49,775 nucleotides of DNA from an uncultured bacterium (lineage in GTDB: Bacteria > Bacillota_I > Bacilli_A > RF39 > UBA660): assembly GCA_948433885.1 (NCBI GenBank), contig CAOJEC010000004.1, positions 1 to 49,775 of the forward strand. Reading direction: 5' to 3'. Below the pieces are notes generated by a model, which was not told the origin of the DNA, ran no database searches, and was given only the letters and a program-made list of their open reading frames with translations. This document shows positions 2,223-38,353 of the stretch, piece by piece (positions within the stretch are counted from its first letter, which is position 1; each line of letters opens with the position of its first letter). Position numbers and translations under genes: made by a program.

Positions 2223-2519
2223 ATGATTAAACATTTAGAAAACGCAGCGGATTTTGAAAGTTTGACTAAAGAAAGATGCTTAGTGGATTTTTATGCCGAT
2301 TGGTGTGGACCATGTAAAATGATGGGAGCTCTTTTAGAAGAATTAGAGAGTAAACTTAGTATTCCTGTCATAAAAGTTAACACCGATAAATTCAATGAAC
2401 TATCTGCCAAGATGGGTATAATGAGCATTCCGACTTTGATCGTCATGGAAAACTCTAAAGAAGTCAAAAAAAACATCGGATTCATGTCTAAAGACGATCT
2501 AATAGAATTTATAAAATAG
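2223..2519 (+). CDS. trxA: Thioredoxin
   Basis: DFYADWCGPCK active site; cis-Pro motif SIPTL. Confidence 0.92.
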   Translation: MIKHLENAADFESLTKERCLVDFYADWCGPCKMMGALLEELESKLSIPVIKVNTDKFNELSAKMGIMSIPTLIVMENSKEVKKNIGFMSKDDLIEFIK

Positions 2520-2541
2520 ACCTTTAAATGGGTCTTTTTTT
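2518..2541 (+). terminator. Intrinsic terminator after trxA
   Basis: AGACC-loop-GGTCT followed by a T tract. Confidence 0.6.
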
Positions 2542-2565: not shown

Positions 2566-2612
2566 TTTGGTACACATTTCCTTTCAACACCCCCTCACTT
2601 TTGTGTACCAAA
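2566..2612. repeat. 11-bp perfect inverted repeat, 25-bp spacer
   Basis: TTTGGTACACA (2566-2576) / TGTGTACCAAA (2602-2612). Confidence 0.7.
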
Positions 2613-2628
2613 AATATTCTAACACCCC

Positions 2629-2659
2629 TTGACAAGTTGGTTCGGGGGGGGGGTATAAT
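2629..2659 (+). promoter_or_regulatory. Consensus sigma70 promoter with poly-G (G10) tract in the spacer
   Basis: TTGACA 2629-2634, TATAAT 2654-2659, 19-bp spacer containing G10 (2644-2653). Confidence 0.85.
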
Positions 2660-2789
2660 CTTGAGTAGATGATACAGTAGGCAAGATAATCGAATCGAAA
2701 AAGATGTTTTTTTAAAAAGGTACTACTTATAAAGTCAACTCGCCGTGGTCGTCAAGCTTTTTGTGTGTCTAAAAATGAGGAGTGATAAA

Positions 2790-4229
2790 ATGAATTTGAA
2801 AACGAAAAAAATGATATGTTTGCTAATCGCGATCGCATCGGTACTGACGATCGTAGGAAGTGTATCTTATGCATACTTCACTGCAATTGGAGAAGTAAGT
2901 CCTTTAGATGCTAAATTGGATACAGCTAATGTAAGTGTTACATTTAGAGACAACGATTTGGGATTGAGTGCTATATTGAACTTAGACGAATCGGTGACAA
3001 AGAAGTTCACTATCGAAAATACAGGGACAGTCGATGCTTCAGTTAAAATGTACTTCGATGAGATGATCAATACATATACCGAAGGGAGTTTGACATATAC
3101 GCTTTTCTACAGTGAAACAGGCGAAGAACCTTACACCGAAGTAGTAAGTACCAAAAATGTACCAGTAAGTTCTGCGAGAGTGAGAAAGACACTAGCTAAT
3201 GAACTCGTTATTCCATTAGGTAAAACATATTACTATTACCTGGAAGTGACTTTCAATCACTTAAAAGACGAGAACCAGGATAAAGACTTAGAAGCCATAT
3301 TCAATACAAAATTCAAAGTAGTAGATATCAAAGAAACCGAAAAGCGAACTTTAGTCTTCGATGCAGGAGAAGGAACCGTCGACATGGAAAATCTCACAGT
3401 AATAGACGGAGAACCGTATGGAGATTTACCTGAAGCCGCGATGTATGGATACAATTTCTTGGGATGGTTCACTGCAAGAGAAGGTGGAGTACAAATAACT
3501 TCGGATACGGTAGTCAATCTAACAAGTAGTCAAAATCTTTATGCTAAATTCGAACCTAAAATAATAAACGTCACACTAGATGCTAGAGGTGGTTACTTTG
3601 ATAACGATCAAAATATTCATACAAAAGTTATTCAAGTAAGATATGGAGACACTTACGGAGAACTCCCGGTTGTTAAAGGAGTACCGGCAGGAGAGTGTAT
3701 CTCCGACTCTAAAGGATGGTCATTGACTAAGCTTGAAAAAGACCTAATTCAAGCTGATACGAAAATAACAATTGCAGAAGATCATATTTTGTACGCCTAT
3801 GCTCCTATATGTTTATGTTTCTTAAAAGGAACATTAATTTACACACCAAATGGATATGTACCTATAGAAAACTTAAAAGTAGGCGAAGAAGTATATTCGT
3901 ATAATGAGAAGACAAAAGAAATAGAAATATCAAAATTGACTCATGTCTTCACAAGGCAAGTCACAAACTATTTGAAAGTTACATTAAAAACAGGAACAGT
4001 TATATATGTGACACCTGAACATCCTTTCTACGACAAAAAAACTGAAACATGGAAACCTATAAAAACATTCAAAGTTGGAGATAAATTAATGGACGAAGAA
4101 GGAAATGAAGTAGAAATATTCTCTATAGAGGAGAAAAACGAAGAAGTGACAGTATACAACTTAGAAGTCGATGGTAATCACGATTATTTCGTTTCAAAAG
4201 ATAACATATTAGTTCACAATAAATTCTGA
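2790..4229 (+). CDS. Secreted protein: SipW/TasA-type signal peptide, two InlB B (Listeria-Bacteroides) repeats, C-terminal Hint (intein-like/PT-HINT) domain
   Basis: RBS AGGAG before ATG 2790; signal ending SYAYFT. Repeats TLVFDAGEG..YGDLP..GYNFLGWF..LYAKF. Hint runs from CFLKGT through VTPEHPF and VYNLEV..HDYFV to ILVHN-KF-stop. Confidence 0.85.
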   Translation: MNLKTKKMICLLIAIASVLTIVGSVSYAYFTAIGEVSPLDAKLDTANVSVTFRDNDLGLSAILNLDESVTKKFTIENTGTVDASVKMYFDEMINTYTEGSLTYTLFYSETGEEPYTEVVSTKNVPVSSARVRKTLANELVIPLGKTYYYYLEVTFNHLKDENQDKDLEAIFNTKFKVVDIKETEKRTLVFDAGEGTVDMENLTVIDGEPYGDLPEAAMYGYNFLGWFTAREGGVQITSDTVVNLTSSQNLYAKFEPKIINVTLDARGGYFDNDQNIHTKVIQVRYGDTYGELPVVKGVPAGECISDSKGWSLTKLEKDLIQADTKITIAEDHILYAYAPICLCFLKGTLIYTPNGYVPIENLKVGEEVYSYNEKTKEIEISKLTHVFTRQVTNYLKVTLKTGTVIYVTPEHPFYDKKTETWKPIKTFKVGDKLMDEEGNEVEIFSIEEKNEEVTVYNLEVDGNHDYFVSKDNILVHNKF

Positions 4230-4301: not shown

Positions 4302-4425
4302 ATTTTCAAATTTATCGAGTTTTTATGAAAATACACACAAATTAATTAAAGAATTTAAAGATGACAAATTGACTTTTTCTAAAGGCATATGCTATAATCG
4401 TTATTAGAATAGTGAGTGGGTCTAA

Positions 4426-5694
4426 ATGAAGAGAAAAGTAGTGTTAATCATCGCAATCATGCTCAGTTTTATATCTTTTGAAAACATAAGTGCTTGTGGT
4501 GAAATCAAAGAATTACATTCGTCAGTAGGAACAGTAAGTACGATAGGTGAAACAAAATACTTGGTAACTGTACCGAAAGGAACAAACGAAGTAACGCTGA
4601 CTGGTACGACCGACTATATTTGGGTTAAGGGTTACGAACCGAGAACTGTATCTACTAAAAATGGAACAGTCGAACTGAAAGTAGACGGCAATGCTTGTGG
4701 ATTCGGAACATACACATATTTTGTATCTTTCAAAGAAGAATCCGACATTATCGCCGACAACGAAGTCGAGCAACAAGATCCAGCACCTACCGACCAAGAA
4801 CCGGATCCTGCTCCAAGTGAACCAATCGACTATGGAGTTTTAGTACTCTCAAACTTAAAAATAAGTGGTGTCGACATTGCTTTCAATCCGGAGACACGTA
4901 TTTACGATATAGAAATAATCGATACTATAAGTAAATTAGACATCACTCCGACCACTCAAGACTCTTCTGTTACTGTAGAAATTTCTAGCAATGTAAACGA
5001 CTTAAAAAAAGGAATGAATACAGTTACAATTAAACTATCGGACCCCTATGGAAACACAGGTCTCTATGTATTGAACGTCAATAAAGTACAAAAAAAATCT
5101 TCAAATAACTTTTTAGCAGGACTTACCATCGAAAAATATCAATTGAATTTCGATCCATCAGTAACGGAATATACTGTAGAAATAGGAAAAGAATCCGTTT
5201 TGAATATCTCAGCAATCACCGAAAGTGAACTAGCTTCCTATGTAATTCTTGGAAACACTAACATTTCAGATGGTGATACTATTACAGTTCGTGTCACCGC
5301 GGAGAATGGCGAAACGAAAGACTACGTAATTACAGTAAAGAGAAAATTTAACATAATGGATTATTGGATTTTCATCGTCATCGGACTACTGTTATTCTTA
5401 TTGCTACTCGTATTTACGATTTCTAAAAACAAGAAAAATAAGAAAAAGATGGGACCAGAAACGATCCAAGGAGAAAACAATACAGCAGGAGTCATCCAAG
5501 ACGTAGGATCTCAAAATCAAAACTCTATACAAACCGAAGTTTTCTCACAAGACGGCATCCAAATGGCTCCGACGACTAGTACTCCAGGTACTTTAAGAAT
5601 AATAGAACCTACTAATTTGGATACACAACCTGTCAACAATGAAAATTCAGCAGTAGACGAGGACAAAAGTCCGACTGAAATATTTCAATTGTAA
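4426..5694 (+). CDS. Surface protein with cadherin-like beta-sandwich repeats and C-terminal TM anchor
   Basis: Signal peptide; repeats LSNLKISG..FNPETRIY and LAGLTIE..FDPSVTEY..VTAENGETKDYVITV; TM at WIFIVIGLLLFLLLLVF. Confidence 0.75.
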   Translation: MKRKVVLIIAIMLSFISFENISACGEIKELHSSVGTVSTIGETKYLVTVPKGTNEVTLTGTTDYIWVKGYEPRTVSTKNGTVELKVDGNACGFGTYTYFVSFKEESDIIADNEVEQQDPAPTDQEPDPAPSEPIDYGVLVLSNLKISGVDIAFNPETRIYDIEIIDTISKLDITPTTQDSSVTVEISSNVNDLKKGMNTVTIKLSDPYGNTGLYVLNVNKVQKKSSNNFLAGLTIEKYQLNFDPSVTEYTVEIGKESVLNISAITESELASYVILGNTNISDGDTITVRVTAENGETKDYVITVKRKFNIMDYWIFIVIGLLLFLLLLVFTISKNKKNKKKMGPETIQGENNTAGVIQDVGSQNQNSIQTEVFSQDGIQMAPTTSTPGTLRIIEPTNLDTQPVNNENSAVDEDKSPTEIFQL

Positions 5695-9323: not shown

Positions 9324-10736
9324 TCAAACGAAGAAACCCACCCATGGGTTTTTTCGTTTGAGTCGTTTTATCGCCTCCTCGATCGTCACATCGGCCGGCC
9401 CAACCTTGTCGAGCTCACTCCACTTGATGGGCATCGAAACGCGACATTTATCTTTGAGACGAATAGAGTAGGGAGCGACACTTGTTGCTCCTTTTGTATT
9501 TCTAACCCAATCTATGAATATCTTGTTCATCCTCTTGTTTTTTCTCATATTAGAAGAATACTTATCGGGCCACATCGCTTCCATAACTTTTGCCACATTT
9601 TGGGCAAATTCGCTCGCATCATCCCAATTCTTCAATTTGTCGATCGGGACTACCACATGATAGCCTTTCCCACCGCTCGTCTTCAAATAAGATTTCAAAG
9701 AAAACTCATCCAAGACACTTTTCAAATCTCTGACACCTTGTCGTATCTTCGATAAAGACATTCCTTCGTCGGGATCCAAATCGAAAACTAAAATATTCGG
9801 CTTATCTATATTTGCTATCGATGATCCCCATATGTGAAATTCGTAACTGTTCATTTGTACCTCTGAGATCAATCCTTCTTCATTTGTAATATGATAATAA
9901 TCTTCTTTGTTGCCGTTTTTACTAGGAATCATCATCTTGACTACACCACTATTAGAAGAGAAATTGTGCTTGGCAAAAAATTTTTCTCCACCCACACCTG
10001 AAGGCAATCTGACTGTGCTAAGTAGACGATTTTCTAAATAGGGTAACATACGTTTGGCAACCTTCTTATAATAAAGTGCAATGTCGTACTTTGTTATCGT
10101 CGGTTTTTCGAAGATATGCTTATCTGGGTTGCTTATTTCGACACCTTCGACAAGAAAGTCCTTTGCCGAATTTCGAACTCTTTTGATCTGCTTACCAGAA
10201 CTTATTTCACCCATAGTTCTATCAGTTCGCACGCTGCGATCGAAAGAAGATATGTCGTCATATAAGAAAACTCCATCTTTCTCTTTAATCAAAAGCCAAT
10301 TGTCCTCTTTGAATTTTACGAGAGTCCAAGATCCTTTTAGACGTTTTCCAAATAGACGGAATTTAAAAGAACCTGTTTTTATTTCGCCCTTTGCATTGCC
10401 ATCACATTCGTAAAAACCTTCATCCCAAATCATCACAGTCCCACCGCCATATTCTCCCTTCGGAATGGTTCCTTCGAAATCCTTGTAAGCATAAGGATGA
10501 TCTTCCACCTTGACAGCGAGACGTTTATCGCGAGTATTGTACGACGGCCCTTTAGGGACAGCCCAACTGACGAGAACACCACCGACCTCCAACCGAAAAT
10601 CGTAGTGATCTCTTCTAGCAGAGTGATGTTGAACGACGAATATATGCTTCTTTTTATTTGTTACTTTCTTTCCAATTGGCTCGGCTGTCGAATTGAAATT
10701 CCTTTTTTTATTGTATGCGCTCAAAGATTTTGTCAT
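9324..10736 (-). CDS. ligD: NHEJ LigD phosphoesterase-polymerase (PE-POL) fusion, no ligase domain
   Basis: PE motifs FVVQHH..HYDFRLE..SWAVPKGPS..VEDHP..YGGGTV; POL motifs VFDLDP, KTSGGKGYHV, FIDWVRN. Confidence 0.9.
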   Translation of the reverse strand: MTKSLSAYNKKRNFNSTAEPIGKKVTNKKKHIFVVQHHSARRDHYDFRLEVGGVLVSWAVPKGPSYNTRDKRLAVKVEDHPYAYKDFEGTIPKGEYGGGTVMIWDEGFYECDGNAKGEIKTGSFKFRLFGKRLKGSWTLVKFKEDNWLLIKEKDGVFLYDDISSFDRSVRTDRTMGEISSGKQIKRVRNSAKDFLVEGVEISNPDKHIFEKPTITKYDIALYYKKVAKRMLPYLENRLLSTVRLPSGVGGEKFFAKHNFSSNSGVVKMMIPSKNGNKEDYYHITNEEGLISEVQMNSYEFHIWGSSIANIDKPNILVFDLDPDEGMSLSKIRQGVRDLKSVLDEFSLKSYLKTSGGKGYHVVVPIDKLKNWDDASEFAQNVAKVMEAMWPDKYSSNMRKNKRMNKIFIDWVRNTKGATSVAPYSIRLKDKCRVSMPIKWSELDKVGPADVTIEEAIKRLKRKNPWVGFFV

Positions 10737-11629
10737 TTTTCATTCCTTTCTATCTCTTTTTGAAAAACCGGTTGTCTCAAGTGACCATTAGGTGTCCTTT
10801 CGATGAAGACAACTTCACACGAATATTTTCGATCGATGTAAAATGCTTTCTCTTCATCGTAATCTATAAAAGGAGATTTCTTTCTAGTTTTACATCTCTT
10901 CAATTTTTTATATAAAGGACTGTCCCTCATGACTGACACTTTACCAACAAAGTGAAATCTTTTACCTCGGTATTCTCCCAAAAGCAAAGAAGCTTTATGA
11001 GCGTTTTCTACAAAACCTCCGACTATAAAAATTTCTTTTTTAAAATTTTTAATCTTTATCCAATCTTTTGTACGAATTCCGGTTTCATAAATACTCGCTT
11101 TTTTCTTTGCGACGATTCCTTCTAATCCCATTTTGACTACTTGCTGAAAAAGATCTTTACCTTTTCCGGCGACATATTTTGTTTTGACGAATGTCTCCGT
11201 GTCGGGATATTTCGATAACATTTTTTTCCTGTCCAATAGAGGTAACTTTCTCAAGTCTTTTTTGTCATATAGACAATCGAACGCGACAAATGCGACCGGC
11301 TCCTCGCGACACATAGACTCGATTTTAGATTTGTCTTTGAGAAGATTTCGTTTTTGCAGTTTCGAAAAACTCGGCATACCATGTTCGAAAGAGACAATTT
11401 CACCATCAAAAATCACTTTATCGTCGACAATGTTGGCAATCTCTTGTAATTCGGGAAAAATATGAGTAATCTCGTTGCCTCGTCTAGTAAAAACATGAAC
11501 CACCTTAGGACTTGCATGAAGAGTTGCCCTGATGCCGTCGAACTTGAATTCGAAAATATAATCATCATCATCGAAAGGACTAGATTGCTCACTCAAAAGC
11601 ATCGGCTGAACAAAAGTATTGAATTTCAT
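10733..11629 (-). CDS. ATP-dependent DNA ligase (LigD ligase domain, stand-alone)
   Basis: PMLL, EFKFDGIRA (KxDG adenylation motif), FDGE, EGIVAKK, WIKIK. Confidence 0.88.
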   Translation of the reverse strand: MKFNTFVQPMLLSEQSSPFDDDDYIFEFKFDGIRATLHASPKVVHVFTRRGNEITHIFPELQEIANIVDDKVIFDGEIVSFEHGMPSFSKLQKRNLLKDKSKIESMCREEPVAFVAFDCLYDKKDLRKLPLLDRKKMLSKYPDTETFVKTKYVAGKGKDLFQQVVKMGLEGIVAKKKASIYETGIRTKDWIKIKNFKKEIFIVGGFVENAHKASLLLGEYRGKRFHFVGKVSVMRDSPLYKKLKRCKTRKKSPFIDYDEEKAFYIDRKYSCEVVFIERTPNGHLRQPVFQKEIERNEK

Positions 11630-12373
11630 CTAACTCTCCAAGCTCTTTTGTAAAGAAGACATCAAATCTTTGATAGACTCCTTTTTCTTTGCTTTCGTTT
11701 TCGATATAGGCTTGCCGTCGATCTTTTTATCAATGGAATCCTTGATACGATTTTGATAATCATCTTCGTATTTCTGAGGCGTAAAATGTCCTGAAAGATG
11801 CTCGACGAGCTTCAATGCCAAGTTGAGTTCTTCCTTCGAATATGATGCTTCGACGTTCGCCTCGGGAATATTCACTTCTTCATCAAAATACATCGTCGAC
11901 ATCAATATATTCCCGTCCATATACCTCAAAAGTACATAATAAAATTTGCTACTCAAAGCCGTTTTAGCGACCGCCACTTTTTTTGATTTTTTAAGAACTT
12001 CTAAAAAGAGAGAATAAGATTTCGATTTCTTAGGTGTTGAAAGCACATAACTTTTCTCATAGTAAATTGGACTTATTTCGCTTTCCGGCACAAAGGCGAC
12101 AATTTCGATAGTCCCTTTAGAGTCGACTTGAAAACTGTCGAGTTCTTCTTTAGTAAAAGTCACATATTTATCTTTCTCGTACTCGTATCCTTTTATGATG
12201 TCGGCTTCTTTCAAAGGTTTTTTACATTGCTCACAATATTTTTGATAATGTACACGGCTGAGACATTTTTTATGCAATTGATTGAAAGAAGTATCGTTGT
12301 TTTTTATGATGGGATTGTAGACGACAGGAATATTGACCAATCCGAAAGAAATTTCACTTTTCATATTTGCCAT
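11630..12373 (-). CDS. ku: Ku (NHEJ DNA end-binding protein)
   Basis: ISFGLVNIPV, IIKGYEYEKDKYV, YEDDYQNRI, DLMSSLQKSL. Confidence 0.9.
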   Translation of the reverse strand: MANMKSEISFGLVNIPVVYNPIIKNNDTSFNQLHKKCLSRVHYQKYCEQCKKPLKEADIIKGYEYEKDKYVTFTKEELDSFQVDSKGTIEIVAFVPESEISPIYYEKSYVLSTPKKSKSYSLFLEVLKKSKKVAVAKTALSSKFYYVLLRYMDGNILMSTMYFDEEVNIPEANVEASYSKEELNLALKLVEHLSGHFTPQKYEDDYQNRIKDSIDKKIDGKPISKTKAKKKESIKDLMSSLQKSLES

Positions 12374-15836: not shown

Positions 15837-16211
15837 TTGGAACACGCGATTTACTTTTTAATCTCGTTTGTAATAACTTACTTTGGACGATTATATCTTT
15901 TTAGAAGAAGTAACAAAGTGTCAAATAGATCTAAAAAAAAGGAGAAAAAAAAGGACAATACGAGTATAGAAATAAAATATTTGAGTTCGAAGTTTTCACT
16001 AGATAGAGATTCACTGAATACTAAAAAGATGAACTATCTAATAAGTGCGATAGACGCCTCGATCATCGCGATCGCATTCACTTTGGTAAGTTTTATCGAC
16101 GACATGATAGTCACCTTCACCGTAGGAATAATAACAGTGTTCGTTCTCATATATGTGTCCTATGAAATACTAGGAAAAATTTTAAAAAAGAAAGGAATTG
16201 AAAAAAAATGA
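15837..16211 (+). CDS. Small membrane protein of unknown function, first gene of the leuS operon
   Basis: RBS AAGGAGG then TTG 15837 (track start 15792 lies inside the terminator); 3 hydrophobic segments; stop overlaps leuS start (ATGA). Confidence 0.7.
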   Translation: MEHAIYFLISFVITYFGRLYLFRRSNKVSNRSKKKEKKKDNTSIEIKYLSSKFSLDRDSLNTKKMNYLISAIDASIIAIAFTLVSFIDDMIVTFTVGIITVFVLIYVSYEILGKILKKKGIEKK

Positions 16212-19060
16212 ATTATGACTTTAAAAACATCGAAAAAAAATGGCAAGAGAAATGGGAAAAAGAAGGTACATTTGTAGCCGAGAATGGTGGAGATAAAGAA
16301 AAGTACTATGTACTTGTAGAATTTCCATATCCAAGTGGAGTAGGCCTACACGTCGGTCATGTCCGCAGCTACACTGCTTTGGATTCACTAGCTCGTCTAA
16401 AAAGAGCACAAGGATATAACGTCTTGTTTCCTATGGGTTGGGATTCATTCGGTGCACCTGCTGAACAATATGCCATCAAAAACCACGTTTATCCAGCAAA
16501 CATGGTGAAAGACTGCATCGAAACTTTCAAAAGACAAATAAAAGCATTAGGTTCATCTTTCGATTGGACACGCGAATTTGCAACTACCGATCCCGAATAT
16601 TACAAATGGACTCAATGGCAATTTTTACAATTTTACAAAGCAGGACTCGCTTATAAGGCTGAGAAAGAAATAAATTGGTGTCCAAATTGTAAGACAGGCT
16701 TATCCAATGAAGATGCCGCTGGTGGAGTATGTGAACGATGTGGATCATCGACGACCAAGAAACTCAAAAATCAATGGATGCTCAAGATGAGTTCGTATGC
16801 TGATAGTTTATTAGATGGACTTGCAGAAACTGAATTTTGGGACAAAATAAAAATCGCTCAAATCAATTGGATAGGAAAGAGCACCGGGGCAGAAGTAAAT
16901 TTCAAAATGAAAGAAGTAGAAGATACTCTTACAGTTTTTACTACTAGATGCGATACACTATTCGGTGTAACTGCCATGGTTCTATCTCCAGAACATGAAT
17001 TTTTGAATAAATACGCAGACAAAATAAATAACATAGATGAAGTTCGTGCCTATCGAGAACAAACGCATAAGAAAAGTGAAATCGAAAGAACGGATATGAC
17101 TAAGGAAAAGACAGGCGTGAAGATCGATGGACTTACTGCCATCAATCCAGTTAACGGTGCCGAGATTGAAATTTGGATGTCCGATTATGTACTTGCAAGT
17201 TATGGTACTGGAGCCATCATGATGGTGCCTGCACACGATGATCGAGATTATGCTTTTGCAAAAAAATTCGATATACCTATCGTACAAGTTATAGCCAAGA
17301 ACTTCGTAGGTTCAGGAGACTCGACTATCAGACCAGATAAACCTTTCACCGATCGTCAAGTTGTAATAGCGGCAATCGCTCATCCGACTGAAGATAAATA
17401 TCTATGTGTCAAAAACAACAAATTTGGATGGATAAACTTCGTGATGGGCGGCATCGAAGGTGATGAAAACCCTATCGAGGCAGCAAAAAGAGAAATCATC
17501 GAAGAAACCGGGTATACTGAGATCGAGATCGAACGCGAAATGGAATTTGTCTACTTCGATAACTTCTTTGCTAGACATAAAGATGTCAATAGACATATAA
17601 CTTGCCACACTGTCGTCGGAAGATTGAAAAATCTAGATGCAATCGAAAGATCCGAAGAAGAAAGCGAACTCCAAGAAGTGATGTGGATCGATAAAGAAAA
17701 ATTAATCGAAACATTGAATACAAATGCACATAAGTACGACGCAACTCGTGCCTTAGAAGGCGACGGACCGTTGACCGAAGAAGGTGTTCATATCAATTCG
17801 GATTTCTTAGATGGTTTAGGAAAAGAAGAAGCAATTGAACGCATGCTAGAATTCCTAGAAGAAAAGGGTATAGGAAAAAAGACAACAAACTATCGTCTAC
17901 AAGATTGGATTTTCTCTCGTCAACGTTTTTGGGGTGAACCTATACCTATGATTCATTGTGAAAAATGTGGATGGGTGCCTGTACCTGAAGAAGAATTGCC
18001 ACTAATTTTGCCGGACGTTCCTTCTTACGAGCCTACTGATAATGGAGAAAGTCCTTTATCTACAGTAGACGAATGGGTGAATACGACTTGTCCTTCATGC
18101 GGAAATCACGCCGTCAGAGAAACCGATACGATGCCAAACTGGGCCGGGTCTAGCTGGTACTGGATCAGATACATGGATCCAAAATGTGACACCGCTATAG
18201 CAAACATGGATGCGATGAAATATTGGGGACAAGTAGATCTTTACAATGGTGGAATGGAACATGCGACGAGACATCTTCTCTATGCAAGATTTTGGAATCA
18301 AGTTCTCTTCGACAATGGAATAGTTCCTGTACGCGAACCGTTTAAAAAGAGAGTTGCTCACGGTATGATACTCGGTGAAAATAACGAGAAGATGAGTAAA
18401 AGCAAAGGCAATGTAGTCAATCCTGATGACATGTTCGAAACTTATGGTGCCGATGCACTTAGAACTTACGAGATGTTTATAGGAGACTACACTAAAGATG
18501 CCGCTTGGAGTGAAAACGGACTTAAAGGTTGTAAAAAGTTCTTGGATAGAATATTTAGACTTCAAACAAAACTGAATGATGATGAAGAGTATTCTAAAGA
18601 GTTGGAAGCTATGATCAATAAGACAATTAAAAAAGTTACCGAAGATATAGAAACTATGAACTATAATACTGCTGTGTCAGCACTGATGATTTTGTTGAAT
18701 GCATACGACAAACAAGAAAAAATTTCGCGAAAAGACTATCGTACTATTTTACAACTTTTGAATCCTATCGCCCCGCACGTAACTGAAGAATTGAACGAAA
18801 TATGTAAATTGGGTGTTCCGTTTACGTCAAGTGATTGGCCTATTTGTGACGAATCGAAAATAGTAGAAGACACTTATGAAATAGGAGTTCAAGTGAACGG
18901 AAAACTTCGTGGAAGTATAGTAGTAAGTGCTGATGAAAATGAAAACAGCATTAAAGAGAAAGCTCTAGCAAATGAAAATGTCATAAAACATATCGAAGGC
19001 AAAGAGATAATCAAAACCATCGTGATACCTAAAAGAATTGTCAGCATCGTAGTAAAATAA
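16208..19060 (+). CDS. leuS: Leucyl-tRNA synthetase with an inserted NUDIX hydrolase domain
   Basis: HVGH and KMSKS signatures; CP1 editing motifs TTRCDTLFG, GTGAIMMVPAHD; Nudix box GGIEGDENPIEAAKREIIEETGY at 17447-17515. Confidence 0.95.
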   Translation: MNYDFKNIEKKWQEKWEKEGTFVAENGGDKEKYYVLVEFPYPSGVGLHVGHVRSYTALDSLARLKRAQGYNVLFPMGWDSFGAPAEQYAIKNHVYPANMVKDCIETFKRQIKALGSSFDWTREFATTDPEYYKWTQWQFLQFYKAGLAYKAEKEINWCPNCKTGLSNEDAAGGVCERCGSSTTKKLKNQWMLKMSSYADSLLDGLAETEFWDKIKIAQINWIGKSTGAEVNFKMKEVEDTLTVFTTRCDTLFGVTAMVLSPEHEFLNKYADKINNIDEVRAYREQTHKKSEIERTDMTKEKTGVKIDGLTAINPVNGAEIEIWMSDYVLASYGTGAIMMVPAHDDRDYAFAKKFDIPIVQVIAKNFVGSGDSTIRPDKPFTDRQVVIAAIAHPTEDKYLCVKNNKFGWINFVMGGIEGDENPIEAAKREIIEETGYTEIEIEREMEFVYFDNFFARHKDVNRHITCHTVVGRLKNLDAIERSEEESELQEVMWIDKEKLIETLNTNAHKYDATRALEGDGPLTEEGVHINSDFLDGLGKEEAIERMLEFLEEKGIGKKTTNYRLQDWIFSRQRFWGEPIPMIHCEKCGWVPVPEEELPLILPDVPSYEPTDNGESPLSTVDEWVNTTCPSCGNHAVRETDTMPNWAGSSWYWIRYMDPKCDTAIANMDAMKYWGQVDLYNGGMEHATRHLLYARFWNQVLFDNGIVPVREPFKKRVAHGMILGENNEKMSKSKGNVVNPDDMFETYGADALRTYEMFIGDYTKDAAWSENGLKGCKKFLDRIFRLQTKLNDDEEYSKELEAMINKTIKKVTEDIETMNYNTAVSALMILLNAYDKQEKISRKDYRTILQLLNPIAPHVTEELNEICKLGVPFTSSDWPICDESKIVEDTYEIGVQVNGKLRGSIVVSADENENSIKEKALANENVIKHIEGKEIIKTIVIPKRIVSIVVK

Positions 19061-29914: not shown

Positions 29915-29936
29915 CTTGGAGAAAGGATTGATTATT

Positions 29937-30554
29937 GTGGATTCACAGGATAATGACAAATATGGGTATGCTAGGTGTTCTACTCTAGCACAGGATGCGG
30001 AGTATGAGATTAAGGTGTTAATGGATAAAGGAGTTGCTAGGGATCATATCTATATAGAATATGTGTCCGGAGGGAAAACTCGAGATCAGCGAGTTGAGTA
30101 TGACAAATTGATGAAAGTGTTGGAACAAAATCCAGGTAGTGAGTTATATGCTACCGATTTGACCAGAATTGCTCGTAATAACAAAGATGTCTATGAGTTG
30201 GTGGAGTTTATTCAAAAGAACCATTTAAAGCTGGATATAGGTTCTTTTGTGGTATCATGTAAAGATTCTGAGATAGATCCAATTAGTGAAGTTATTATTA
30301 TGGTCTTGGGAATTTTCGCCACCTTCGACCTCAAGCTCAAACACCAACAGATTTTTAATGGTATTCAACAGGCGAAGGCCTCTGGGAAACGTTTAGGTGC
30401 TCCTAATAAAACTAAAGATAAGATAGACGATCAGTTTTATAAGTATTATGCACAATATAAGAATAAGCAAATTAACATTACTGAGCTAGCTAAGCTTTCT
30501 GGTAGATGTAGGCAAACTTGCTATAACCTAATTAAGTTGATAGAAACAAATTAA
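29937..30554 (+). CDS. Small serine recombinase (resolvase/invertase) with C-terminal HTH
   Basis: GYARCST, EYVSGG, DLTRIARN, GKRLGAP, HTH at the end; GTG 29937 after GAAAGGA. Confidence 0.88.
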   Translation: MDSQDNDKYGYARCSTLAQDAEYEIKVLMDKGVARDHIYIEYVSGGKTRDQRVEYDKLMKVLEQNPGSELYATDLTRIARNNKDVYELVEFIQKNHLKLDIGSFVVSCKDSEIDPISEVIIMVLGIFATFDLKLKHQQIFNGIQQAKASGKRLGAPNKTKDKIDDQFYKYYAQYKNKQINITELAKLSGRCRQTCYNLIKLIETN

Positions 30555-35825: not shown

Positions 35826-36941
35826 GTGTCTGTTAGAAAAGTTAATGAAAAAGAATGGACTAAAGATGGTCGTAAATATGTGTATGAGGGATGGTATAAA
35901 GATGCCTTTGGCAAGAGAAAACCTTACAAGTCAAGAAAATATCTTACTAGAAAAGAAGCAGTACAGGAAGAAAGAGTTTTTCTTTCTTCTCTTGAAACTG
36001 TAGTTAAGATGGAAGATATTACGTTCAAAGAATTGTGTGATAAACATTTTGATTATAAGCAAAATGCCAAAAAGGTTAAGGTTACTACATTGCGTAATTA
36101 TAATAAAAGACAACAACATTTAGAAATATTTAATGATGTTAAGCTAAGTAAATTAAGTATAGCGCAGTTCGATGAATGGAAGAAGATGATGAACGAAACA
36201 ACTATGGAGACTTCTACTAAAAATGATTTATACAAATACTTTAGAAGCGTTCTTCATTTTGGAACTAATCGTTATAATTACAATTTTACAGAATTACTCA
36301 ATATGATGAATAATTTTGATGATCCTAATGAGAGTCCAAAAGAGATGGAGTTTTGGACGAAAGCAGAATTTGATAAATTTATCTCTGTTGAAACTGATCT
36401 TCAATTTAGAGCAGCATTTGAAACATTGTACTATTGTGGATTGCGATCCGGGGAACTTAGGGGACTTACTTGGTACGACATAAATTTTGAAACCAAAGAA
36501 TTGTCAGTAAATAAGAATATAACTGTTAATTTAGATGGTAAGAAATATGTTATAACAACGCCTAAGACAAAAAGTAGTAAAAGAAAACTTACGATGCCAG
36601 ATATACTAGTAGAAGATTTAAAAAAGTTAAGAAAAATGCAAAATAATTATTGTGAATTTAATAATAATTGGTTTGTATTTGGTTCTTATGAACCATTAGG
36701 AAAATCTAGGCTAAGAGACAGAAAGAATAAGAACTGTAAATTAGCTGGAGTAAAGCAAATAAGAATTCATGATTTTAGACATAGTTGTGCGTCCTTGTTA
36801 ATCAATAATGGGGCTAACGTAACAATTGTTGCTCATTATCTAGGTCATACAAAAATAGATGAAACTTTAAATACTTACACTCATATGTTTAAAGATAAAG
36901 CAGAAGAAGTTACAAGAATGATAAATCAGTTAAACAGGTAG
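35826..36941 (+). CDS. int: Tyrosine integrase (element 1)
   Basis: GLRSGE (R), TPKT (K), IHDFRH, LGH, TYTH (Y); N-terminal arm-binding domain. Confidence 0.92.
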   Translation: MSVRKVNEKEWTKDGRKYVYEGWYKDAFGKRKPYKSRKYLTRKEAVQEERVFLSSLETVVKMEDITFKELCDKHFDYKQNAKKVKVTTLRNYNKRQQHLEIFNDVKLSKLSIAQFDEWKKMMNETTMETSTKNDLYKYFRSVLHFGTNRYNYNFTELLNMMNNFDDPNESPKEMEFWTKAEFDKFISVETDLQFRAAFETLYYCGLRSGELRGLTWYDINFETKELSVNKNITVNLDGKKYVITTPKTKSSKRKLTMPDILVEDLKKLRKMQNNYCEFNNNWFVFGSYEPLGKSRLRDRKNKNCKLAGVKQIRIHDFRHSCASLLINNGANVTIVAHYLGHTKIDETLNTYTHMFKDKAEEVTRMINQLNR

Positions 36942-37237: not shown

Positions 37238-38353
37238 TTAATTTAAATTGTCGATAATGTTTATTATTTCATTCATTTGATTTTTAAATAGGTGAGAATA
37301 TGTGTTTAATGTCTCATCTATTTTTGTATGTCCTAGATATTTTGCAACTACATTTATTGTTGCGCCACTATTAATTAAAAGTGATGCACAACTATGCCTA
37401 AAATCGTGAATTCTAATTTGTTTAACTTCTGCTAACTCACAATTTTTATTTTTCCTACATCTTATTTTACCATTTGTAATAGGTTCAGTATCTCCAAAAA
37501 CATACCAACTATTGTTAAATCCATAATGATTATTAGAAACCCTATATAATTCCTTTAAGTCATCTAATAAAACTTTAGATATTGGAATATTTCTAACACT
37601 TGACTTTGTTTTAGGGGTAGTAACCATATAAGATTTATCTTCATCTCCTCTAGTTGCTACAACATTTTTATTTACACTTAAATAACTATTTTTAAAATCA
37701 ATGTCATTCCAAGTAAGCCCACGAAGTTCACCACGCCTTAAACCACAATAATATAAAGTCTCATACATAGTTTTATACAATATGTTATCTTCTACGGAAA
37801 TAAACTTTTTAAATTCATCATAAGTAAAAAATAACATTTCTTTTGGAATTTCGTTTGGATTAGTAAAATTAGTCATTTTATTGTAAGTTGCAGTGAAATT
37901 AAAATTGTACCATTTAGTGGCATAGTTTAATAATTCTTTAAAGAATTTAAATAGATGATTTTTATGATTCGTTGTATAACCATAAGAATTAATCTCTTTC
38001 TTCCATTTTTCAAAGTGTTCTATATTAAAATCCTTTAGTTTTACATTTTCTAGATTTTTAAAGAATTTTTGTCTATCTCTATAAGTCTTTAAAGTAGTGA
38101 ATTTTACTTTATCTTCTTTATAGGCATAGAAGAGAGTATATAAATCTTTAAAAGTCATATTACGATCTTTATCTGCTCGTTCAGTATTGGTTGTTAGAAA
38201 CTCTCTTTCGGCTTTTAATGCCTCTGGTTTCGTAAAAAACTTCTTTGACTTATATTTTCTTCTAGTTCCATCTAAATTCTTTATATAGTCATAAAATATC
38301 CATTTGCGCCCATCTTTTGTCCAGTCTTGCCTTTCTAATTGTTTAACTGCCAT
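37238..38353 (-). CDS. int: Tyrosine integrase (element 2)
   Basis: GLRRGE, TPKT, IHDFRH, LGH, TYSH; closely related to int at 35826. Confidence 0.92.
   Translation of the reverse strand: MAVKQLERQDWTKDGRKWIFYDYIKNLDGTRRKYKSKKFFTKPEALKAEREFLTTNTERADKDRNMTFKDLYTLFYAYKEDKVKFTTLKTYRDRQKFFKNLENVKLKDFNIEHFEKWKKEINSYGYTTNHKNHLFKFFKELLNYATKWYNFNFTATYNKMTNFTNPNEIPKEMLFFTYDEFKKFISVEDNILYKTMYETLYYCGLRRGELRGLTWNDIDFKNSYLSVNKNVVATRGDEDKSYMVTTPKTKSSVRNIPISKVLLDDLKELYRVSNNHYGFNNSWYVFGDTEPITNGKIRCRKNKNCELAEVKQIRIHDFRHSCASLLINSGATINVVAKYLGHTKIDETLNTYSHLFKNQMNEIINIIDNLN

Follow-up and report, generated by a model that had tools for sequence, protein, structure and literature searches.

Slippage switches are textbook material in Neisseria, Haemophilus, Campylobacter, Treponema and the mycoplasmas, and in gut commensals attention has gone mainly to the invertible promoters of Bacteroides. 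In Mycoplasma hyorhinis, the vlp system of Rosengarten and Wise reportedly consists of paralogous surface genes, each with its own promoter and a homopolymer in the spacer of that promoter, which are said to switch independently of one another. Here we report on a 49,775-nucleotide (nt) stretch of DNA from an uncultured bacterium (assembly GCA_948433885.1, contig CAOJEC010000004.1), hereafter the window, where a promoter at positions 2629-2659 carries ten consecutive Gs between its -35 and -10 hexamers and precedes the gene for a protein that ends in a Hint domain; numbers preceded by L or P are our labels for the loci and proteins compared to it. We put at about 75% the probability that this element is a sigma-A-type promoter with a slippage-prone spacer tract, that is, a switch or volume control of the kind described for porA and tp0126.

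In Neisseria meningitidis, the poly-G in the spacer of the porA promoter gives high PorA levels at 11 Gs, about 2-fold lower levels at 10 Gs, and about 13-fold lower levels at 9 Gs (PMC3639595). The window locus resembles porA in that a G tract of about 9-11 residues lies within the sigma-70-type spacer of a surface protein gene. Unlike porA, however, both hexamers in the window are perfect consensus and the tract lies directly on the -10, the assembled state overshoots the optimum by 2 nt instead of matching it or falling short of it, and the host is an uncultured, low-GC, gut bacterium of Bacilli/Tenericutes-like type; of the two loci, switching has been demonstrated in porA only. The Treponema pallidum gene tp0126, which encodes an OmpW homologue, also has a poly-G between -35 and -10, with transcription optimal at a 17-nt spacer and with tract lengths that vary within isolates, G8-G11 being common (PMC7864442). 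Poly-G tracts also occur at the tpr promoters of T. pallidum. A spacer poly-G is again the shared feature, and Treponema metagenome-assembled genomes (MAGs) are also among the matches listed in our search for such promoters with tracts of eight or more Gs; phylum and gene product differ, and heterogeneity and reporter dependence were measured in T. pallidum, whereas those of the window we infer. The likeness to vlp, as that system is recounted, is that several Hint-protein or lipoprotein cassettes here bear copies of one promoter module; the vlp tracts, in contrast, are said to be poly-A rather than poly-G and the vlp genes to be clustered lipoprotein genes, whereas the copies found here are scattered over the trx, rimP and RNase J loci and encode a protein with a bacterial intein-like (BIL) domain. 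In Campylobacter jejuni, G/C homopolymers of about 8-11 residues are reported to cluster in surface-structure genes and to be polymorphic both between and within populations (PMC8355987, PMC6321876). The two cases are alike in joining a low-GC genome to G/C tracts in surface genes; most Campylobacter tracts, however, are intragenic frameshift switches, whereas that of the window lies in a promoter spacer. Invertible promoters reportedly turn surface structures reversibly ON or OFF in gut Bacteroidales and Clostridioides (work cited in PMC11868660); those promoters are flipped by a site-specific recombinase, whereas no recombinase or inverted-repeat-bounded promoter is involved here.

Results

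The promoter and its G tract

Read 5' to 3', the region consists of AACACCCC, TTGACA, AGTTGGTTC, GGGGGGGGGG, TATAAT and CTTGAG, all on the plus strand. The -35 (2629-2634) and -10 (2654-2659) hexamers are both perfect consensus and unchanged in every promoter of the family, and the 19-nt spacer that separates them (2635-2653) is made of AGTTGGTTC followed by a G10 homopolymer on the non-template strand (2644-2653), which abuts the -10, is kept as a tract in the paralogues and the orthologue, and is the element proposed to be prone to slippage. A preliminary description of this DNA had reported the perfect hexamers and the 19-nt spacer with its ten Gs, and had calculated that a G8 allele would have a 17-nt spacer; direct reading confirms the former at exactly those coordinates, and the arithmetic of the latter is correct. 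According to a census of the window, G10 at 2644-2653 is the only G/C homopolymer of at least six residues in its 49,775 nt, and the single occurrence of a perfect TTGACA-N14-21-TATAAT on either strand is the promoter at 2629-2659. Given a base composition of 17.6% G and 13.1% C, 0.0012 runs of at least ten Gs and 0.28 perfect hexamer pairs would be expected per window, and this architecture is therefore far beyond chance. No alternative -35 is available at 17 or 18 nt from the -10, as the hexamers GACAAG and TGACAA match TTGACA at one and two of six positions, respectively. The spacings of near-consensus promoters tabulated over the whole window were the same as in shuffles of this AT-rich DNA, and the tabulation thus says nothing on the spacing preferred by the organism.

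The G10 run was crossed, with unique sequence on both sides, in five other assemblies from five samples (L001, L002, L003, L004 and L008); the tract is real and not an assembly artefact. A number of contigs have an end only a few nt from it (L002, L004, L017 and L018); L017 (1-60) ends at the tract in a 46-nt poly-C/G junk tail, and in L270 the TATAAT runs straight into a Nextera adapter. We considered such contig ends as evidence of heterogeneity and rejected them as ambiguous, as strain mixtures (C4 versus C5 before the -35) and trouble in sequencing homopolymers explain them equally well.

Copies of the promoter within and beyond the species

Where contigs encode the identical thioredoxin or CvpA, they match the window at 99.9-100% identity. 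At the thioredoxin (trx) locus, where the window combines AGTTGGTTC with G10 ahead of the Hint protein, a sister strain that is 98.7% identical upstream (L286) has AACAAGTTC and G10, also a 19-nt spacer, ahead of a different lipoprotein-like gene with a different leader, and a third sample (L294) has AAAAGCTC and G11, again 19 nt, ahead of a Hint-protein allele. At other sites the spacer is 18 nt long: in the type IV secretion system coupling-protein gene/rimP-nusA interval (L016), AAAAGCTC is followed by an interrupted G6AG3 tract and by a Hint paralogue that is 88-89% identical; at the same rimP locus of a sister strain (L293), and likewise beside RNase J (L018), it is followed by G10 and a Hint paralogue. 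The flanks of L293 and L294 are identical, the former carrying G10 and the latter G11. In another species (L010), the Hint orthologue, 48% identical in protein sequence, is preceded by a 15-nt spacer composed of AAGGTC (6 nt) and G9. When the window, L016, L018, L286 and L010 are compared, conservation is confined to CTTGACAA, the G tract and TATAAT, and leaders and upstream DNA diverge; the tract is therefore kept as a tract by selection, with neither its length nor that of the spacer (15, 18 or 19 nt) being fixed.

The homology to L016 (blastn, 88.8%; window 2626-4223, plus strand) runs from 3 nt before the -35 to the stop codon, so that the unit duplicated at other chromosomal sites of the same species is promoter, leader and gene together. 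Different loci apparently exchange promoter, leader and cassettes with one another. In L286 (2601-3651, compared to window 2590-2800), the trx-adjacent G10 promoter drives, behind its different leader, a lipoprotein-like gene (MKKKVLLIVLGIPLISLWLCS...) with a C-terminal domain (ATTDEG...YWRIIR...) that is also the one found in relatives of the window protein of about 505 amino acids (aa). These relatives (P0033; L295-L297) form operon-like tandem arrays, in which no fewer than four paralogues (514, 498, 505 and 521 aa) follow one another at gaps of 13-43 nt, and within the arrays they are without individual promoters. P0013, a relative without Hint domain, has an ordinary TTGACT-17-TATAAT promoter. 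L011, a relative that is 43% identical and comes from a 'Tenericutes' MAG, is without a poly-G promoter; its 5' leader (1040-1110) contains a 17-nt unit, GAAGTCCGGATAAAAAA, repeated 3-4 times in tandem, which may represent another kind of repeat-based variation. The exact promoter of the window, with any tract length, had no match among the GTDB representatives, the species being either unrepresented there or represented by a genome with a different allele.

Length polymorphism of same-design promoters in metagenomes

Metagenomes were searched with the pattern CTTGACAA-N2-8-TC-G4-N0-12-GGG-TATAAT, which returned at least 120 stretches that were grouped by their flanks. Orthologous sets from different samples have identical flanks and differ in tract length alone. 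In the largest of the clusters described here (41 contigs), G8 was found six or seven times, G9 15 times, G10 16 times and G11 twice, along with one G4AG3; a second one (13 contigs) has G9 twice, G10 seven times, G11 three times and G12 once. Two smaller clusters, of eight and six contigs, span G8-G10 and G7-G11, respectively, and a Streptococcus-like cluster of five contigs spans G8-G10. The genes in these clusters encode Tat- or Sec-lipoproteins and wall-type surface proteins. Polymorphism of this sort, as read from the assembled contigs, is the behaviour expected of hypermutable contingency promoters.

Poly-G spacer promoters in species representatives

The pattern TTGACA-N4-12-G8-TATAAT, allowing tracts of G8 or more, was scanned in one genome per species (GTDB) and found in at least 118 stretches, at no fewer than 124 sites, whereas random sequence of equal size should contain about 10. 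A complete scan for the corresponding C8 pattern gave 21 matches, mostly in unrelated environmental phyla, whereas the G matches listed come mainly from gut Clostridia, Bacilli, Anaeroplasmataceae, Selenomonadales, Saccharibacteria and Treponema. Part of the surplus of poly-G relative to poly-C could stem from base composition, as coding and leading strands of Firmicutes are generally richer in G than in C, and so is the window (17.6% against 13.1%). In a control on the position of the Gs, done on viral contigs only, five tracts had G against the -10, two had G against the -35, and none had C against the -10.

Among the matches listed, tract lengths peak at G9-G10 (G8, 17; G9, 61; G10, 30; G11, 9; G12, 5; G14, 2), several MAGs have two or three such promoters, and the spacer lengths are bimodal (14 nt, 5; 15 nt, 15; 16 nt, 16; 17 nt, 8; 18 nt, 29; 19 nt, 37; 20 nt, 14), with a trough at 17 nt, the canonical optimum, for which a post hoc Poisson test gives P = 4e-4 (8 or fewer against 22.5 expected from the neighbouring lengths). 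The first downstream gene begins with a signal-peptide or lipoprotein-like N-terminus in 56 of 86 of these listed matches (65%), compared to 166 of 1076 (15%) when random anchors in the same loci are taken through the same procedure (odds ratio 10, Fisher p = 1e-22); lipoprotein genes are numerous among the downstream genes. Adjacent paralogous promoters are often one G apart, as in L099 (G10/G9), L046 and L078 (G9/G10), and L071 (G10/G11).

The promoters of L024 (3957-4500), L058, L109 and L121 (three Oscillospiraceae-type MAGs) have TTGACA-CGACAAGAC-G10-TATAAT in common, with a 19-nt spacer and G10 in all, and 3' of them several hundred nt are conserved, apparently non-coding, and without Rfam match. 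In L075, from an uncultured Bacilli MAG, a minus-strand promoter with G10 in an 18-nt spacer precedes a prepilin-type (N-methyl) pilin-like gene (MKKNGFTLVELL...), and the sequence that follows its -10, CTGAGTAGAG, resembles that of the window.

The controlled gene and its product

The gene controlled by the promoter (2790-4229, plus strand) encodes 479 aa, as supported by Pfam, NCBIfam, homologues and an AlphaFold model with a mean predicted local distance difference test score of 84. Public gene calls begin at the GTG at 2745, whereas the homologues begin at the position of the ATG at 2790, which is almost certainly the true start, with a GAGGAG Shine-Dalgarno 7 nt before it (2777-2782, plus strand, read directly). 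The protein starts with a signal/anchor helix, followed by a beta-rich N-domain that shares about 70% identity with the N-terminal parts of the large family of proteins of about 505 aa mentioned above, by one or more InlB-type B-repeats, and by a C-terminal Hint domain. A Flg_new/Listeria-Bacteroides (InlB B-) repeat spans aa 187-253 (3348-3548, plus strand; PF09479, 1.3e-13), and the Hint/BIL domain spans aa 343-477 (3816-4220, plus strand; PT-HINT, 8e-19). The best solved relative of the latter is PDB 2LWY (E = 4.6e-21; Foldseek template modelling score 0.89, root-mean-square deviation 1.5 Angstrom), and its motifs include the block A Cys (CFLKGT...), TPEH, and a terminal His-Asn (...LVHN), after which come Lys-Phe and the stop codon. 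The repeat and the Hint match bear out the earlier proposal that the downstream gene encodes a Hint surface protein.

A match to TIGR04090 (BsaA/SipW type) is weak (22 bits, the cut-off being 60; E = 1e-4), camelysin (PF12389) is present in some homologues, and no SipW gene was seen in the window. A search of PDB sequences with the N-terminal domain gave no match, and in the fold search most of the signal came from the Hint domain. Taken together, the signal/anchor helix, the B-repeat and the weak BsaA/SipW-type match predict an exported, surface-type product. By motifs and fold, the Hint domain is assigned to the A-type BIL domains, for which autocatalytic cleavage at the N- or C-terminus would be predicted. 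We also considered a polymorphic toxin with a PT-HINT domain, and this was ruled out because nothing but Lys-Phe follows the Hint domain, leaving no toxin domain 3' of it, and because the next gene encodes a cadherin-like protein and has its own promoter. With nothing downstream to splice or release, a C-terminal BIL domain would likely cleave the upstream surface domain or transfer it to a nucleophile, by analogy to Hedgehog, and its location at the very C-terminus of this unusual protein points to self-processing or self-attachment of the surface protein. The fold matches include the Tetrahymena BIL2 domains of the BUBL locus.

Neighbourhood, leader and repeats around the promoter

Upstream of the promoter lie cvpA and the thioredoxin gene (2223-2519, plus strand; Pfam Thioredoxin, 1.7e-23), which ends 110 nt before the -35 and has an intrinsic terminator, a stem-loop followed by a T run, at 2518-2541 (plus strand), found by the terminator scan and as a palindrome in the repeat search; on account of this terminator, the promoter stands alone, insulated from read-through. 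Downstream, the predicted 5' untranslated region of about 124 nt (2666-2789, plus strand), with its start placed about 7 nt after the -10, shows no significant structure (fold z = 0.57) and belongs to no Rfam family; Rfam and tRNA scans of the whole window gave no matches either. This 'type A' leader is common to the window, L016, L293 and L294, and an unrelated 'type B' leader is found in L018 and L286. The next gene (4426-5694) encodes a cadherin-like beta-sandwich protein and need not depend on the G-tract promoter, because the promoter scan found a promoter of its own, TTGACT-18-TATAAT with a TG, at 4369-4398 (plus strand).

Just 5' of the -35, a AAATATTCTAACAC block (2612-2625, plus strand) that is also present in the orthologous promoter of L010 is possibly an UP-like element, of uncertain meaning, as the motif alone is also found at unrelated promoters. 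AATATTCTAACAC was tried as a diagnostic anchor and discarded, as the pattern search returned the L010 contig together with two unrelated promoters with ordinary spacers, of HicA-like toxin and HTH genes. An inverted repeat at 2563-2615, with 14-nt arms (ATATTTGGTACACA and TGTGTACCAAAAAT) that are 93% complementary and 25 nt apart, emerged from the repeat search; it ends 14 nt upstream of the -35, is confined to the trx locus of the clone and its sister strain, and may serve as an operator or insulator. In L010, GTAGTG...CACTAC makes up a shorter inverted repeat at a similar position. A 9-nt inverted repeat at 2655-2690 (ATAATCTTG and CAAGATAAT), which overlaps the -10 and the predicted start site, is kept in the type A leaders (L016, L293 and L294) and not in type B, and could be a repressor site.

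Other observations in the window

The leucyl-tRNA synthetase gene (16208-19060; 950 aa) has an apparent insertion behind the editing domain, a NUDIX domain at residues 385-509, and this 950-aa form is found in 25 cluster members. A complete bacterial non-homologous end-joining set (Ku, ATP-dependent ligase, and LigD phosphoesterase/primase-polymerase) is encoded on the minus strand at 9324-12373. The region from about 20000 to 44000 is low in GC (0.23-0.31) and contains a serine resolvase (29916-30554), tyrosine integrases on the plus (35826-36941) and minus (37238-38353) strands, DnaB-like/AAA_25 replication proteins, a T5orf172 domain and DUF3800; it is probably made of one or more integrated mobile elements.

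Discussion

According to the mechanism that we propose, slipped-strand mispairing during replication would add or remove single Gs, and the number of Gs would set the separation of the -35 from the -10 hexamer (17 nt for G8, 18 for G9, 19 for G10) and, with it, the contact of RNA polymerase with both hexamers, so that cells of one clone would make differing amounts of the exported B-repeat/BIL protein. A tract flush on the -10 would keep the GGG-TATAAT context constant while the -35 is displaced. The tract in the window would slip frequently, and transcription would start downstream of the -10 at 2654-2659, with indirect support from the conserved block and from the cassette edge 3 nt before the -35. 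As 19 nt is off the canonical optimum, the assembled G10 allele is probably a low-expression state, two steps from the maximal one. With G10 invariant in the clone and the sister strain and all three trx alleles at a 19-nt spacer, the assignment of G10 as OFF and G8 as ON stays an inference.

Several of our observations do, in fact, weigh against a promoter that switches freely. All five of the other assemblies of the clone that cross the tract, which are consensus sequences from five samples, have G10; such invariance is however a low-power test, since a single clone is involved and a consensus hides minority alleles. The sister strain, 98.7% identical, likewise has G10 and 19 nt, and the G11 allele is a base shorter in the non-G part of its spacer, leaving the total at 19 nt, a compensation that hints at selection for this length rather than free drift. 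Assembly errors could account for some of the length differences among metagenome contigs of low coverage, although contigs of high coverage differ too (L218 at 93x has G10; L237 at 9x has G9), and Illumina homopolymer problems explain contig breaks at the tract equally well. The phase-variable promoter put forward in the preliminary description is partly supported: by its architecture, by a tract that varies among paralogues and the orthologue, by G8-G11 in promoters of like design, and by the exported surface-type product. Variation in run length across strains and metagenomes, which that description had named as the check, is found in the same-design promoters, whereas invariance across populations, which it had named as refuting the idea, is what the consensus sequences of this allele show (5/5 in the clone, and the sister strain).

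These same data lend themselves to a reading in which the tract is hypermutable and G10 with its 19-nt spacer is a selected working level, low or even optimal, so that the volume control is parked at 18-19 nt and the 'G8 = ON' state may be rare or deleterious. We regard this as a tentative alternative that deserves consideration: three different trx alleles all total 19 nt, including the compensated one of 8 nt plus G11, among the matches listed 18-19 nt is modal and 17 nt depleted, and the polymorphic metagenome clusters centre on 18-19 nt too. Three alleles are a small sample, however, and both porA and tp0126 carry G tracts in their spacers and yet peak at 17 nt, the ordinary promoters of the lineage are spaced at 17-18 nt (TTGACT-17-TATAAT in L298 and TTGACT-18-TATAAT at 4369), and an optimum at 18-19 nt leaves the second mode of the class, at 15-16 nt, unexplained. 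It is unlikely that the G run is instead a static, stable spacer element, structural or protein-binding, with conventional regulation acting perhaps through the repeats at 2563-2615 or 2655-2690. Such an element would fit the unchanged G10 of every clone assembly and of the sister strain, the inverted repeats that flank or overlap the promoter, and the invariable placement of the tract flush on the -10, as Gs of the non-template strand, a placement that spacer length by itself would not call for; but paralogues and the orthologue are unequal in tract length, their spacers measuring 15, 18 and 19 nt, one paralogue is interrupted (G6AG3) and still has perfect hexamers, promoters of the same design are length-polymorphic between samples, the inverted repeats are not kept across the family, and the enrichment for surface proteins is the signature of a contingency locus.

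Less probable still is that a different promoter within the 130-nt interval, such as TTGAGT-18-GATAAT at 2661-2690, serves the gene, and that the G-tract promoter is irrelevant or a relic. That candidate matches at 9 of 12 positions in the promoter scan, and its GATAATC motif is common to the type A leaders and L010; matches of this quality, however, are no commoner in the window (9) than expected from shuffled sequence (11.6), the motif is missing from the type B leaders, although these belong to genes of the same family, the sole block conserved in all copies is that of the perfect -35, G tract and -10, and the duplicated cassette starts exactly 3 nt before that -35. As for a sequencing or assembly artefact, such as two-colour Illumina poly-G, the tail of 46 nt in the related contig L017 might suggest one, but G10 lies between unique flanks in five independent assemblies made with different assemblers, and the same tract is present in homologous promoters of other species and at other loci; we consider the chance of an artefact negligible. 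A static element, another promoter and an artefact are, in our view, all much less likely than a slipped-strand switch or volume control.

The mechanism itself is already known, and what may be new is the scale and grammar of the class in gut commensals and, in the species of the window, the portability of promoter and leader from site to site and cassette to cassette. No description of such a promoter class in gut Firmicutes was found in the open-access subset of the literature, including the 2025 phase-variation review PMC11868660, which amounts to absence of evidence and no more. We lean, by a modest degree, toward regarding the window promoter as an instance of a very large, apparently uncatalogued class of contingency promoters in gut commensals, with a strict grammar and a portable module, which would span Clostridia, Bacilli/Tenericutes-like lineages, Selenomonadales, Saccharibacteria and Treponema. 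The grammar of this class may comprise perfect hexamers, a non-template G8-G14 tract flush on the -10, and a location upstream of lipoprotein or surface-protein genes, with the majority of alleles perhaps parked 1-2 nt off the 17-nt optimum. In the species of the window, the promoter-plus-leader module may be portable, as the trx site carries the Hint protein or an unrelated lipoprotein depending on the strain.

The pattern TTGACA-N-Gn-TATAAT would let such loci be catalogued straight from assemblies, which would bear on the annotation of phase-variable genes in MAGs, and also on strain-level metagenomics and on MAG completeness, as assemblies tend to break or degrade at such tracts. This locus and more than 200 similar promoters suggest that many uncultured gut Firmicutes and their relatives vary their surface proteins through poly-G spacers, which would bear on how these commensals evade immunity and phages.

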